Shown: positions 5,426-9,290 of the stretch, piece after piece
Layout: each line of letters opens with the position of its first letter
Position numbering within the stretch: the first letter of the stretch is position 1
NCBI GenBank assembly: GCA_041662585.1
Contig: JBAZSG010000005.1
Coordinates: forward strand, 68,181 to 132,180
From: Patescibacteria group bacterium
GTDB lineage: Bacteria; Patescibacteriota; Patescibacteriia; UBA1558; GWA2-36-10
DNA length: 64,000 nucleotides
Reading direction: 5' to 3'
Notes under the pieces: model-generated
Told to the model about the DNA's origin: nothing
The model's input: only the letters and a program-made list of their open reading frames with translations
Database searches by the model: none
Translations under genes and position numbers: made by a program

Positions 5426-7132
5426 ATGACTATTGCCAAAAGATACAAAAGTATTGCTGAAAAATTTGGAGCCAACATCGCTTTGGCTTATCTTGTTGAC
5501 GGTCAATATAAAACCATCAGCTATAATGATTTAGATATTTATCGTGAGCGTTTGGCTGATATTTGGCATAAGCTTGGTTTCAAAAAAGGAGAAACACTAG
5601 CTATAATGTTGCCCAATGCTCCAGAGTGGATTATTAGCGATTTGGCGGCTGCTACTTTAGGATTAATTGTTGTGCCATTACACACTACCTACAATGGAGA
5701 ATATCTCAAAAAGATGATCAAACATTCTGGTAGTAAATATTTGGTAATTCATCAGGAATTTTTGGAAAAGCACAAAGCAGTCATTGATAGTTTGAACTTG
5801 GATAAGATTTTTATAGTCAATGGTCAAAAAGATTTTGTAGAAAAAAATATTTCTCTTTGGCCAGACTTGGACGAGGCTAGATCGCTGTCACCAATTGATA
5901 CAATAGTATCTTCTGATGACATTCATACTATTATCTATACTTCTGGCACTACTGGCGATCCCAAGGGAGTGATGCTGACTCACAAAAATTTTATTGTAGA
6001 TGTGGAATCAGCCAAGCGTAGTGTGGCAATCTATGCTAGCGACAGATTTTTTTCTTTTTTGCCCTTGTCACATATTTTTGAAAGAACCGCTGGTTACTAT
6101 ACACCACTTTTTACTGGTGCCAGCGTGTATTTTGCCCAGAGTAGTAAAACTATTATTGATGATATAAAAAAAGCTCAACCCACCATATTAAATAGCGTGC
6201 CACGCATTTTTGAAAAAGTCCACGACAAGGTTTTTGATAAAATACAAAATGGTGGACATTTAAAAAGAAAGTTATTTTTTGAGGCTGTACAAATGTCAGT
6301 GGACAAAAGAAAAGGCAATTTGAATTTTTTCAGGCATATTATTTGGAAAATTTTGGATTTGTTGGTATTAAAAAAAGTCAGGGGTGTGCTAGGTGGTAAA
6401 TTGCGTTTGGCTATTTCTGGTGGTGCATCATTGGATTTGAAGATAATAAAGTTTTTTGATAATTTGGGAATAAAAATTATTGAAGGTTATGGTATGACCG
6501 AGACTTCACCGATTATCGCTCTTAATAAAGTTGAAAATTCTAGACCCGGCACAGTCGGGCAGGCTATTGATTGCAATGAAGTTATGATTGGTGACAATAA
6601 AGAAATACTGCTAAGAGGGGCCAATGTCATGGCTGGTTATTATCAAGCTGAAGATTTGACTAGTGAGATTATAGATAAAGACGGTTGGCTACATACTGGT
6701 GATTTGGGTTTTATAGACAAAGATGGATTTATATCTATTATTGGTCGTTCCAAAGATGTGATAGTTTTGTCAACCGGCAAAAATATTTTTCCAGAAAGTA
6801 TAGAAAATGTTTTAAATGAAAGTCGCTACATTATTCAAAGTATGATCTATGGTGATAAACAAAAGCATATTTCAGCTTTTATAGTGCCAGATTTTGAACA
6901 ATTAAAACAATGGTGTGTTGAGCAGGGGATAAAATTTGATCTTAAAGATGAAAAAATTATAAAGTTTTATGAGGAAAAAATAAATGAAAGATTGAAAGAA
7001 AGCGCTAAAATAGAACAAATCAATTATTTTAAATTAATTCCCGAAGAATTTACTCAAGAAAATGGATTGCTGACACCAACTCTTAAACTTAGAAGGTATA
7101 AAATATTAGAAAAGTATGTTAATTATATTTAA
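5426..7132 (+). CDS. Long-chain fatty acid--CoA ligase (AMP-dependent synthetase)
   Basis: AMP-binding signature [20 protein letters not shown]. Length and GYGMTETS / TGDLG motifs are typical of FadD-type ligases. Confidence 0.85.
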   Translation: [568 protein letters not shown]

Positions 7133-7186
7133 ATAGTTATTTTATGAATTTTATGGTAATATAAATTTATAATTTATAGTTAATAT

Positions 7187-7267
7187 ATGTCTTATCAAAA
7201 TATTATTTTATTAATTATTGGTATTTTGAATATAGACATAGCCACACATAATATTTTATTGGCGTAA
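7187..7267 (+). pseudogene. Relic N-terminal fragment of a 7TM-family gene
   Basis: 26-codon ORF MSYQNIILLIIGILNIDIATHNILLA matches the N-terminus of the 7TM paralogs (MSIQNLTLLIAGIINLIMSVLVF) and then stops. Confidence 0.45.
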
Positions 7268-7342
7268 TCGAGAAAATTTAGCTAATTTTTATTATAGTAT
7301 GATGGTTTTTATTCAAGAAATAACATAATATAGTTTAATTTT

Positions 7343-8191
7343 ATGCAAATAAATTTACCAAACATTGATCCAATTATCGTTTCTAGAGAAATACAAAATT
7401 TTATTATTCAACAGATTTTATCAGCAGGGAAGTCTGGTGGAGTGATTGGTTTAAGTGGTGGTATAGACTCCACTACTGTTGCTTATTTAGCAAAACAGGC
7501 TTTTGATAGTTATAATCAAAAACACAATAAAATAAAATTAAATTTATTTGGATTAATCATGCCATCTAAATCAAATAGTATAGAAGATGCAAAAGATGGA
7601 ATTAGAATAGCTAAAAATCTTGGAATTGATTATAGAGAAATAGCTATTGAATCTCTAGTAAGTAGTTTTACTAAGTTAATCCCAGATATTATTAGGGATG
7701 ATTATGATAAGGGTAATCTTCGTAGTGAAAGTAGGGCTATTATATTATCTAGAGTGGCCGCTGCAAAAAATAGTTTAATTTTAGGTACTGGTAATAGGGA
7801 TGAGGATTATTGTTTGGGTTATTTTACTAAGAGAGGCGATGGGCAAGTTGATATTAGTCCTATAGGGGATATTTCTAAAAGACATGTTAAAGAATTAGCT
7901 TCTTATTTAGGTGTACCAAAAGAATTAGTTGAACGCACTCCAACCGCTGGATTATGGCCAGGCCAAACTGATGAAAAAGAGTTGGGATTTAGTTATTTAG
8001 AAGCAGAAACGGTTATTGAGGGTAGGGATCAAGGTTTGAGTAGACAAGACATACAGAATATTACTAATTTTGGTTATGTGAGAAAAAAGAAGGAGGAAAA
8101 AATTTTTATTGTAGATAAAATATTAAACATGCATGAAATTAATAAATATAAATTACAAATGCCACCAGTGCCAAAGGTGACTAAATATTGA
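7343..8191 (+). CDS. nadE: NH3-dependent NAD+ synthetase
   Basis: PP-loop GLSGGIDSTTVAYLA; length 282 aa. Confidence 0.9.
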   Translation: MQINLPNIDPIIVSREIQNFIIQQILSAGKSGGVIGLSGGIDSTTVAYLAKQAFDSYNQKHNKIKLNLFGLIMPSKSNSIEDAKDGIRIAKNLGIDYREIAIESLVSSFTKLIPDIIRDDYDKGNLRSESRAIILSRVAAAKNSLILGTGNRDEDYCLGYFTKRGDGQVDISPIGDISKRHVKELASYLGVPKELVERTPTAGLWPGQTDEKELGFSYLEAETVIEGRDQGLSRQDIQNITNFGYVRKKKEEKIFIVDKILNMHEINKYKLQMPPVPKVTKY

Positions 8192-8192
8192 C

Positions 8193-9290
8193 ATGATTAT
8201 AGACCTTATCATTGGTTTACTACCAAAAAATATAGCCATTAAGTTATCCCAATTTTTTTTCGGAAAATTAGATTATTGTTTTTTAATACATTCAAGATAT
8301 TATTCTGATTTATATAGGAAATTTCCTTATTTTAAAATACTACCCAACTTTATTTTAAGAAGTATTGGCAGATATATGTGGCCATTAAGAGTTGGTTATA
8401 TTTATGGTTTAGATTTTAATAATAAAAAGAAAAATGGATTGTTTATTGGTTCACCTATGGATGCTAAAGATATGCTAGATAATAGAGATTTAGCAAAAAC
8501 CAAAATACTCAAAGCAGCAAATTTCGCAGAAAAATTAGGAGTTAAATATATTGGTTTAGGGGCGCTAAGTGCTTCTTTGACGAGGAACGGATTAGATGTA
8601 AAAGAGAAAATAAATTGTTTTGTAACAACAGGGCATTCTTTAACTGCCTGGGTTGTGTCTGACAATGCAATAAGAATTAAAAAAATTTTGAATAGAGATT
8701 TAACAATAGCTATAGTAGGAGCAGGAGGATCAATAGGATCTGCTTGTTATTATATTTTAAAGAGGCACTTCAAAAAAATAATTTTAATAGAAAAAAATTT
8801 AGAGAGGCTAAGAGAGAGAGTAAATTTGTCAGATCAAAACATTAAGAAGTATAGTCAAAATTTAGAAGATATTAAATTAGCAGATATTATAATTACAGCA
8901 ACTAACGCTCCTTATTCTATTATAGATAATATAAATCAATTAAAAAAAGGGACAATACTTATAGATGACGCCCAGCCAATTAATGTTTCTAGAAAAGTAA
9001 ATTCTCAAGAGTATAAAACTCTGGTTATTGAGGGTGGAGTTTGTAATTTAAACGGTATCAATTATAAACTAAATTTAGATTTATTGGATACAGGGGACAT
9101 GTTTAGTTGTATGGGCGAATTATTAGTATTAACTGCTTTAGATAGTAATGATGTCACTGTTGGATTTACAAATGAGAAAAGAGTTTTAGAAATATCAAAG
9201 ATGGCAGAACTTGTTGGTATTCATAGTGCTAGATTTAGATCTTTTGGTAAATTAGTAACAGATGATTATATAAAATATATTTTATCATAA
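8193..9290 (+). CDS. Acyl-ACP reductase (AAR)-family NAD(P)-dependent oxidoreductase
   Basis: Aligns along its length to cyanobacterial acyl-ACP reductase: TTGHSLTAWVV vs TTGNTHTAYVI; IAIVGAGGSIGSACYYIL vs VAVVGATGDIGSAVCRWL; LIDDAQP vs LIDGGYP; MFSCMGE vs MFACFAE with the catalytic Cys position conserved. Confidence 0.65.
   Translation: MIIDLIIGLLPKNIAIKLSQFFFGKLDYCFLIHSRYYSDLYRKFPYFKILPNFILRSIGRYMWPLRVGYIYGLDFNNKKKNGLFIGSPMDAKDMLDNRDLAKTKILKAANFAEKLGVKYIGLGALSASLTRNGLDVKEKINCFVTTGHSLTAWVVSDNAIRIKKILNRDLTIAIVGAGGSIGSACYYILKRHFKKIILIEKNLERLRERVNLSDQNIKKYSQNLEDIKLADIIITATNAPYSIIDNINQLKKGTILIDDAQPINVSRKVNSQEYKTLVIEGGVCNLNGINYKLNLDLLDTGDMFSCMGELLVLTALDSNDVTVGFTNEKRVLEISKMAELVGIHSARFRSFGKLVTDDYIKYILS

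Follow-up and report, generated by a model that had tools for sequence, protein, structure and literature searches.

The 64-kb stretch of DNA analysed here (64,000 nucleotides of contig JBAZSG010000005.1 from a Patescibacteria group bacterium, hereafter the window) carries at 8193-9290 on the + strand a gene for a protein of 365 amino acids, which is related to the acyl-acyl carrier protein (ACP) reductase AAR and is followed immediately by the gene of a membrane sensor kinase. The window is AT-rich, with a GC content of 0.26-0.36, and its long open reading frames (ORFs) are nearly all located on the + strand. Pfam annotation of the window was obtained directly or from precomputed matches, and all functional statements made below are inferred from homology and genomic context. 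A preliminary description of this DNA had listed four ORFs around the AAR-like gene, and all four are present as described (5426-7132, 7343-8191, 8193-9290 and 9293-12136, all +). The 365-residue protein has a match of 100% identity encoded on a 702-kb contig, which belongs to a metagenome-assembled genome (MAG) labelled 'Patescibacteria group bacterium', and therefore the earlier wording of a reduced genome is right.

The first of the four genes (5426-7132) encodes a predicted FadD11-like long-chain fatty acid-CoA/AMP ligase of 568 residues. Its AMP-binding domain (PF00501) scores 258.8 bits, above the cut-off, and its top NCBIfam model, FadD11, gives 290 bits, which is under the cut-off of 950. 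A stretch of 27 residues in this protein is like a fatty acyl-CoA synthetase signature, and the ligase is a candidate for the acyl supplier in the window lineage. An AT-rich spacer of 210 nt (7133-7342, no strand) separates the ligase gene from nadE (7343-8191), which encodes an NH3-dependent NAD+ synthetase of 282 residues with a single NAD_synthase domain and without a glutaminase domain (TIGR00552, 201.2 bits against a cut-off of 63.65). The ligase had been placed 200 nt upstream; the gap of about this size is real, but it precedes nadE and not the AAR-like gene. From stop to ATG, nadE is separated from the AAR-like gene by only 1 nt (TGAcATG) and the AAR-like gene from the kinase gene by 2 nt (TAAatATG), in agreement with the tight arrangement reported before. 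From this ORF spacing we infer translational coupling of nadE, the AAR-like gene and the kinase gene, and the spacer is probably the boundary between the ligase gene and this unit. A promoter and terminator scan of positions 5200-12700 gave nothing above shuffled controls, and the operon limits are set by spacing alone. The kinase (9293-12136, 947 residues) has the Pfam domain order HisKA_7TM-GAF(-GAF)-HisKA-HATPase_c, with 40.2 bits for its seven-transmembrane (7TM) sensor domain PF16927 (cut-off 28.6), 55.1 bits for HisKA and 94.7 bits for HATPase_c, and its H-box SHQLRTP (His709) is intact.

Sequence and fold comparisons show that the 8193-9290 product belongs to the AAR/PigE-N/TAD superfamily (COG5322-type) but is no AAR orthologue. 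Among the NCBIfam models, the PigE N-terminal domain scores best (93.6 bits, E 1e-26, cut-off 850), followed by AAR (TIGR04058, 66.8 bits, E 2e-18, cut-off 449.7), while hemA (31 bits, cut-off 209.55) and aroE (21.9 bits, cut-off 200.2) match the Rossmann part only. Pfam detects just Shikimate_DH over residues 168-273, again the Rossmann part, because it holds no AAR-specific model. In the PDB, phmmer found AAR (6jzq) at E 8e-11 and PigE at E 2.5e-10, and the sequence search further returned the TAD of carmabin at 1.5e-5 and glutamyl-tRNA reductase at 0.013. A profile of the clade to which the protein belongs matches AAR at E 6e-26 over profile positions 34-350 and PigE at E 1.8e-34. An AlphaFold model built from 32 homologues (pLDDT 94.4, pTM 0.93) consists of a macrodomain-like domain at the N-terminus and a Rossmann domain at the C-terminus, between which a cleft holds the Cys, as in the superfamily. 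Foldseek aligned this model to AAR 6jzy with template-modelling (TM) scores of 0.77/0.81 (E 2e-19; 2e-19 to 4e-19 for AAR/TAD matches) and to TAD with TM scores of 0.72-0.75, all remaining folds lying at about 0.4 or less (<=0.42). The earlier claim of full-length AAR homology, with Rossmann motif and catalytic Cys in register, is thus borne out. Shikimate dehydrogenase and glutamyl-tRNA reductase, against which the preliminary description had proposed a profile check, are ruled out as identities of the protein by their Rossmann-only matches and far lower sequence and fold scores.

The residues expected of a Cys-dependent enzyme are conserved. In 32 diverse homologues H33, T145, G147, G176, A177, G179, G182, T237, P262, C306 and E309 are invariant, and C306 is also invariant across all of the 78 loci compared below. 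The codon of Cys306, the predicted acyl-accepting nucleophile, lies at 9108-9110 (this and the following features are on the + strand) within the motif MFSCMGE, which aligns with MFACFAE of AAR and NGCMAE of PigE, so that Cys306 pairs with AAR Cys294 and with the PigE Cys (Cys296 in the PigE numbering of PMC8341465). The glycine-rich dinucleotide motif G176-A-G-G-S-I-G182 (8718-8738) matches GATGDIG of AAR. Glu200 (8790-8792), an acidic residue right after strand beta2, is aligned with Asp2102 of TAD and predicts the use of NAD(H) over NADP(H). The T145-T146-G147-H148 motif at the junction of the two domains (8625-8636) corresponds to the Thr-Thr-Gly which places the catalytic Cys in TAD. Beside the predicted nicotinamide site is the loop D258-D259-A-Q-P262 (8964-8978), which reads (D/N)DAQP in the CPR (Candidate Phyla Radiation) clade, DDSGP in TAD, DGGYP in AAR and DVALP in PigE. 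These motifs suggest that the 8193-9290 product is a Cys-dependent, NAD(H)-linked acyl-thioester reductase.

In AAR itself the acyl group carried by ACP is loaded onto Cys294, and the thioester is then reduced with NADPH. The window protein shares with it (TIGR04058, EC 1.2.1.80; PDB 6JZQ, 6JZU, 6JZY) the two-domain fold, the Cys context at a helix start, GxxGxxG, TTG and the N-terminal His, and differs in having only ~22% identity, E200 in place of T-A-R-N, DDAQP in place of DGGYP, an added 25-residue helical hairpin at the N-terminus, no gene for an aldehyde-deformylating oxygenase (ADO) in the window and a 7TM kinase as its conserved partner. In Pfam annotation the window contains no ADO, fatty alcohol reductase or wax synthase, the partners that the preliminary description had proposed to look for, and no ADO was seen among the annotated genes of 80 related loci. 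A genuine AAR making fatty aldehyde for alkanes or fatty alcohols as in cyanobacteria would explain the full-length homology and the conserved Cys, and some databases do label homologues 'fatty aldehyde-generating acyl-ACP reductase'. However, the score of 66.8 bits is far short of the 449.7 cut-off, and together with an acidic residue where AAR binds NADPH, a separate clade and the lack of an ADO in the window it makes this identity, which had been suggested earlier, hardly credible.

PigE-N (NF053554; 4PPM chain sequence; KecF-type fusions) is the top-scoring characterised relative and shares the Cys; reduction of a thioester to an aldehyde by the PigE N-terminal domain is experimentally supported. 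PigE works in the MAP pathway of prodigiosin synthesis, is fused to a class III aminotransferase and is encoded in a pigment gene cluster, whereas the window protein stands alone with no aminotransferase nearby. PigE has the DVALP loop and lacks the acidic selector, and the window protein has NAD-type motifs. A PigE-type reductase-aminotransferase fusion was considered and rejected; the ORF stops at residue 365 and the kinase gene comes next, without a class III aminotransferase.

To place the protein among its relatives, we set 78 homologous loci side by side, which were taken from GTDB species representatives and from metagenomes. The locus scan was run with a CPR-only alignment and ORFs in the fetched loci were called by a simple longest-ORF rule. 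The homologues divide cleanly into two types, NAD-type and NADP-type. The NAD-type comprises every CPR member and a few other bins, and the NADP-type is found in Armatimonadota, Firmicutes and Chloroflexi. The N-terminal His motif is FxxH(P/S)R in the NAD-type and HPL in the NADP-type, the junction motif is TTG(H/R) as against TTGNS, and the position after strand beta2 is D or E in all NAD-type loci as against G-R or A-R, the latter resembling T-A-R-N of AAR. The motif that follows is ATNAP in the NAD-type and TVTSA in the NADP-type, the loop is (D/N)DAQP compared to CDVARPR, and the Cys context is F(C/S)CLxE compared to YACMxET. Profile alignment puts E200/D, T145-G147, C306 and D258-P262 of the CPR clade in register with the TAD residues. 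Over the same 206-residue region, with AAR, PigE and TAD references reconstructed from printed HMMER alignments, the hidden Markov model (HMM) of the CPR clade gives 103 bits to PigE-N, 87 to TAD and 83 to AAR, and that of the sister clade gives 136, 56 and 110 bits respectively. In a crude neighbour-joining tree, which uses the same reconstructed references, the two clades stand apart, the window lineage is basal in the CPR group and a PilZ/KS-ACP group (KS, ketoacyl synthase) is its sister; AAR lies outside the NAD-type clade both in the tree and by HMM scores. In a set of 1.84 billion representative proteins, the CPR-clade profile has 4,009 matches at E <= 1e-3, of which 1,197 reach E <= 1e-30, counts which mix the two clades. 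We conclude that the NAD-type is an undescribed subfamily of a known superfamily with a conserved module architecture. In the literature, no paper connecting AAR-like genes or K14330 with CPR was found, COG5322 is mentioned solely for PigE/KecF-type fusions, and the Southlakia genetics paper makes no mention of an AAR-like gene. Among more distant AAR-like proteins, three representatives (P0083, P0110 and P0116, one of them from Omnitrophota) carry N-terminally fused SRPBCC (START-like lipid-binding) domains and an AAR-type GYPKN loop.

TAD, the putative terminal amidation domain found at the C-terminus of the CarI/VatR nonribosomal peptide synthetases (NRPS; PDB 9E4S, 9E4U, 9E4X, 9E50, 9E56), is the relative which shares with the window protein not only the fold and the Cys but also TTGH, the acidic selector, ATN and the DDxxP loop. 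TAD is described as an AAR homologue that binds NAD(H) and not NADP(H), which it excludes because of Asp2102, with invariant TTG and Cys2238 and a DDSG-cisPro loop whose second Asp, a Gly in AAR, stacks on the nicotinamide; the same preprint shows a cluster of discrete homologues outside biosynthetic gene clusters, to which no function was assigned (bioRxiv 10.1101/2024.10.28.620694). TAD acts in NRPS modules on peptidyl substrates bound to a peptidyl carrier protein (PCP), and a 32-residue excursion of its C-terminal domain into the N-terminal domain sets it apart from the stand-alone protein of 365 residues in the window. Overall similarity is lower as well (E 1.5e-5), and HMMER leaves the Cys-bearing C-terminal part unaligned.

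These shared motifs, along with nadE, raise the possibility of TAD-like chemistry, in which the acyl-S-Cys would be resolved by nitrogen to a primary fatty amide. The amide of NAD could be the ammonia source, NadE would regenerate NAD from nicotinic acid adenine dinucleotide (NaAD), and an asparaginase-like protein would supply ammonia. The TAD segment indeed scores 87 bits with the CPR-clade HMM and 56 bits with that of the sister clade. nadE lies 1 nt upstream here, it is likewise present in L004 and L005, and a further, Gln-dependent nadE lies 2.3 kb upstream in the unrelated locus L044. NAD synthetase genes also occur, as an occasional neighbour, beside a few TAD gene clusters (bioRxiv 10.1101/2024.10.28.620694), and the block that is syntenic in L004 and L005 includes an asparaginase-like gene. 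Against this, the function of TAD itself is unproven, nadE is absent from about 27 other NAD-type loci, two occurrences of a housekeeping gene are only weakly above chance, no NRPS, PP-binding or PCP gene is present in the window, and the overall similarity is higher to PigE-N and AAR. We therefore regard fatty amide formation as quite improbable.

The core genetic unit of the NAD-type clade is the enzyme together with a HisKA_7TM kinase. A HisKA_7TM gene is located immediately downstream in 29 of the 31 NAD-type loci and in at most 1 of the 47 NADP-type loci (Fisher's exact test, p = 6e-18, uncorrected for phylogeny and with counts that are not phylogenetically independent). The lone NADP-type exception, L024, was assigned to the wrong type because of Ns in its sequence. 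A same-strand HisKA_7TM kinase gene is also next in relatives of the window protein at 61%, 48%, 36% and 39% identity. The partner kinase is mostly ~540 residues long, the gap between enzyme and kinase genes is generally <=15 nt or an overlap, and the two genes stay together in at least three upstream contexts that are unrelated to one another; no enzyme-kinase fusion protein was seen in the top 150 representatives. Of the linkage that had been called unusual, the kinase part is therefore conserved, while the association with nadE and the FadD-like ligase is limited to a sublineage of three genomes (L001, L004 and L005, 48-100% identity), the only ones in which these two genes lie upstream of the enzyme.

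The gene upstream of the NAD-type enzyme varies in identity but almost always handles acyl groups. A PlsC-type acyltransferase (PF01553, with HX4D and FPEG motifs) lies at most two genes upstream in 18 of the 31 NAD-type loci and in none of 49 other loci, and the usual order in CPR is dnaK-dnaJ-x-acyltransferase-enzyme-kinase-trpS-lysS. In five representative clusters (P0125, P0128, P0138, P0149, P0201) acyltransferase and enzyme form one fusion protein, with the acyltransferase as its N-terminal part, and in P0201 the 7TM kinase is again the next gene. In L009, L018 and L044 a KS and an ACP precede the enzyme-7TM kinase pair, the KS of L009 being a PilZ-KS. Other acyl-related genes near the enzyme encode a FadE-type acyl-CoA dehydrogenase in L015 and, in L086, a giant LCAT/lipase-like protein. 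The KS-ACP cassettes, located at 1-4115 in L009, 3-5599 in L018 and 1256-10651 in L044, are all from non-CPR bins and their kinases are of the HisKA_7TM(-GAF) form.

Two other explanations bear on these neighbours. The enzyme may act as an acyl donor or in the oxidative direction, as an acylating aldehyde dehydrogenase or transacylase, and the acyl-S-Cys306 would then be passed to the acyltransferase, to phosphate (PlsX-like, giving acyl-phosphate for PlsY) or to CoA. In this way CPR without ACP and PlsX would be provided with activated acyl groups. Glyceraldehyde-3-phosphate dehydrogenase (GAPDH) and aspartate-semialdehyde dehydrogenase (ASADH) are established examples of enzymes that carry out the phosphorolysis of a Cys-thioester. 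The fusion to a PlsC-type domain resembles Aas, whose fused partner supplies the acyl donor, the cofactor site has an Asp near the nicotinamide of the kind that the TAD authors suggest to favour NAD+, and CPR are reported with PlsY and PlsC but without PlsX or ACP, so that their acyl donor is unexplained (PMC7242380). However, no relative in the superfamily is known to work in this way, it is unclear where a fatty aldehyde would come from, the KS+ACP subclade does possess an ACP and has the look of a reductive-release system, and NADH use may merely reflect CPR redox metabolism. An acyl-donor or oxidative role is thus unlikely in our view.

Alternatively, the substrate could be a non-lipid activated carboxylate, for example an aminoacyl-tRNA, as for glutamyl-tRNA reductase, or a small acyl-CoA, and the neighbours would then reflect nothing but synteny inherited within a compact genome. 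The protein is distantly related to glutamyl-tRNA reductase, aminoacyl-tRNA synthetase genes lie near both clades (trpS-lysS in CPR, greA-lysS in Firmicutes) and CPR operons mix unrelated functions. The fusions to PlsC-type acyltransferase domains nevertheless go beyond what synteny explains, and the KS+ACP, FadE, lipase and FadD-like neighbours, together with the SRPBCC domains on distant AAR-like relatives, indicate fatty acyl groups. A non-lipid substrate therefore has a low probability. Of the lipid role proposed in the preliminary description, the lipid context is supported by acyltransferase adjacency and fusion and by the KS+ACP genes, while fatty aldehyde production is inferred.

Parts of known signalling systems are found in the same family. 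About ten NAD-type representatives (among them P0167, P0169, P0173, P0174, P0181, P0184, P0189, P0190 and P0208) and the L010 protein (6410-8119) have an N-terminal PilZ domain with RxxxR and DxSxxG motifs; the N-terminal extension in L010 has no Pfam match but shows homology to the N-termini of P0169 and P0189, which contain PilZ. These fusions imply that the enzyme family may be under the control of cyclic di-GMP (c-di-GMP). In L009, L018 and L044 the kinase gene is followed by genes for REC proteins, including a REC-HD-GYP protein in L018. Taken together, kinase adjacency, PilZ fusions and the HD-GYP neighbour indicate a step that is under, or feeds into, membrane signalling.

A further alternative is that enzyme and kinase form a signal synthase-receptor pair. 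The enzyme would make a hydrophobic aldehyde, and this compound or one derived from it would serve as ligand of the adjacent 7TM kinase. Such a circuit, for a lipid-type autoinducer or a host cue, would be comparable to CqsA/CqsS or to RpfF/RpfC, the latter having RpfB as its ligase and RpfG as its HD-GYP regulator. Synthase genes adjoining those of polytopic kinases have precedents in RpfB/RpfF/RpfC/RpfG, CqsA/CqsS and LuxM/LuxN. The likeness to these pairs consists in an acyl-thioester enzyme beside a polytopic kinase, a FadD-type ligase located where rpfB would be and a REC-HD-GYP protein in L018 like RpfG; the difference is that their enzymes are crotonase or PLP proteins without homology to the AAR-like ones and that the sensor domain here is HisKA_7TM. 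It further suits a synthase-receptor pair that enzyme and kinase are the invariant core while the acyl-supplying gene changes, that a dedicated KS+ACP cassette would feed the enzyme in L009, L018 and L044, where the kinase is followed by REC proteins, and that in Anaerolineae of the sister clade the genes next to the enzyme encode a REC-GGDEF-like protein and then a giant kinase. On the other hand, the window contains no response regulator, most CPR modules lie amid housekeeping genes and beside or fused to a PlsC-type acyltransferase, which looks metabolic, the PilZ fusions suggest that the enzyme is a signalling output and not the signal source, and in the literature no ligand is known for any HisKA_7TM domain. 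We consider such a circuit possible but doubtful.

The surroundings of the NADP-type genes are different. In Anaerolineae the gene order is hexapeptide transferase, enzyme, REC-GGDEF-like protein and giant kinase. In Firmicutes and Armatimonadota a conserved protein of ~300 residues is encoded directly upstream of the enzyme, between dus and greA-lysS. It is present at 5956-6858 in L035 and in about 20 other loci (e.g. 6071-6982 in L057), with the motifs MKRVVSxSLGSSKRD... and TPVVDGSGLK.TLER, and P0117 looks like a frameshifted fusion of its gene and the NADP-type enzyme gene. That this protein is a divergent PlsC-type acyltransferase was tried and rejected, with an hhalign probability of 0.3% and no Pfam or NCBIfam matches.

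The reading we favour, tentatively, is that the NAD-type enzyme is an NADH-linked acyl-thioester reductase which forms a regulated reductive branch of membrane acyl-lipid remodelling. The FadD-like ligase (5426-7132) would activate a scavenged fatty acid to a fatty acyl thioester, and in other lineages the acyl group would come by way of the PlsC-type acyltransferase or the KS+ACP pair. It would then be transferred to Cys306, and the resulting thioester would be reduced by NADH to a fatty aldehyde. Flux through this pathway may be coupled to the 7TM kinase, with a further coupling to c-di-GMP via PilZ in other lineages. A similar set of functions is known from ElbD of myxobacterial ether-lipid synthesis, which joins FAR-like (fatty acyl reductase-like), acyl-CoA synthetase, ACP and AGPAT-like domains; fatty-acid activation, a thioester reductase and a PlsC/AGPAT-type acyltransferase are shared, here as neighbours or as acyltransferase-reductase fusions. 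However, ElbD is a single polypeptide with an ACP and its reductase is FAR1-like and not homologous to AAR, the window has no ACP or AGPS, and the acyltransferase is absent from the locus of the window lineage. The lipids reported from a CPR-rich fraction are all acylglycerols (PMC7242380), and ether lipids are not known from CPR.

Several points weigh against an NADH-linked reductase of this kind. Activity, substrate and product are known for no member of the NAD-type clade. TAD, which has the same NAD-type motifs, gave no reductive release in vitro (bioRxiv 10.1101/2024.10.28.620694), and therefore a Cys along with NAD is no guarantee of aldehyde formation. At the locus itself, the 210-nt spacer and nadE stand between the ligase gene and the AAR-like gene, and the linkage to a ligase is seen in three related genomes only. 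The window contains no alkyl-dihydroxyacetone phosphate (alkyl-DHAP) synthase, fatty alcohol reductase, ACP or response regulator. CPR genomes also pack unrelated genes tightly, as with dnaK-dnaJ-...-trpS-lysS around the module, and many of the acyltransferase adjacencies belong to one shared syntenic block and hence are not independent.

The remainder of the window was inspected for possible partners. PlsX, PlsY and alkyl-DHAP synthase are absent from the 64 kb, as are ketoacyl synthase, ACP and response regulator genes (Pfam; tblastn for the last three). Lipid-related genes which are present encode a GDSL lipase (61380-62024), an alpha/beta hydrolase of lysophospholipase-like type (43275-44063) and a membrane O-acyltransferase (MBOAT) with an AlgX-like SGNH protein (32000-34521, - strand), a pair of the type used in O-acylation of polysaccharide or teichoic acid. 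These genes fit a lipid-scavenging lifestyle and prove nothing. Minus-strand islands are few in the window; the MBOAT region is one of them, and the GC skew reverses at the same place (32-34 kb).

Upstream of the ligase gene is a block (1061-5393, +) whose gene order is kept in L004 and L005 and whose functional tie to the AAR-like gene is uncertain. It starts with three tandem HisKA_7TM paralogues (1061-2446, 2460-3140 and 3146-3829; 461, 226 and 227 residues), of which the two short ones consist of the 7TM domain without a kinase domain; a free-standing 7TM gene also adjoins the AAR-like enzyme gene in L014. The asparaginase/GatD-like gene that follows (3833-4816) has an N-terminal domain match at E 6e-16 and is under all equivalog cut-offs; being ammonia-releasing in type and near an NH3-dependent nadE, it could be paired with nadE functionally. 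The block ends with a protein of 190 residues without family matches (4821-5393).

Elsewhere in the window, two tandem paralogues of cofactor-independent phosphoglycerate mutase (15343-18511; 521 and 525 residues) follow phosphoglycerate kinase and enolase and are duplicated likewise in L005. The 47887-56106 region encodes NuoF-like and [FeFe]-hydrogenase-like proteins (326 and 574 residues) and then a resistance-nodulation-division (RND) efflux system with a membrane-fusion protein of 536 residues and an AcrB-like pump of 1058 residues, which is unexpected in CPR. At 56199-59014 two class II aminoacyl-tRNA synthetases of Asp/Asn/Lys type (429 and 472 residues) are encoded in tandem; in most other CPR genomes the enzyme-kinase module adjoins trpS and an Asp/Asn/Lys-type synthetase gene. 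An ORF of 702 residues at 23021-25129 (- strand) has no Pfam match. The window opens with the C-terminal end of a very large secreted protein (16-930) with LVIVD, PKD, FlgD-Ig and Por_Secre_tail domains, the last being a sorting domain of the type IX secretion system (T9SS) type and unusual for Patescibacteria. In L004, the relative at 61% identity, the kinase gene is followed by genes for an adenylation-PCP didomain protein, a thioesterase, a class I glutamine amidotransferase and a 4'-phosphopantetheinyl transferase (12258-16347 for the whole), a minimal NRPS-like set in a CPR genome which is absent from the window.

Patescibacteria (CPR), which account for a large share of bacterial diversity, lack fatty-acid synthesis, and the genomes studied are without ACP and PlsX (PMC7242380), so that how they acquire, activate and remodel acyl chains is an open question. 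The combination of the NAD-type branch, its kinase and an acyl-handling gene points to an unrecognised step in lipid processing or sensing by these lipid-scavenging bacteria. It offers a candidate set for CPR acyl handling, composed of an acyl supplier, a thioester enzyme with Cys and NAD(H) and a 7TM kinase, in many CPR lineages. With considerable doubt, we suggest that the NAD-type enzyme and the HisKA_7TM kinase, joined in most CPR by the PlsC-type acyltransferase, might be an unrecognised and CPR-widespread module for Cys-thioester acyl supply or for a lipid aldehyde sensed by the kinase. If this is true, the module would provide a step that is missing in membrane biogenesis, or else it would be the first circuit for lipid signalling to be described from Patescibacteria. 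If the protein is a plain NADH-dependent fatty acyl reductase, the result would extend the AAR family modestly. For the orphan HisKA_7TM sensor domain, lipid or acyl metabolites become a candidate class of inputs, and the TAD family gains stand-alone relatives which are possibly easier to assay. The assignment would also correct the database labels 'amino acid dehydrogenase', 'shikimate dehydrogenase' and 'fatty aldehyde-generating acyl-ACP reductase' now attached to these proteins.

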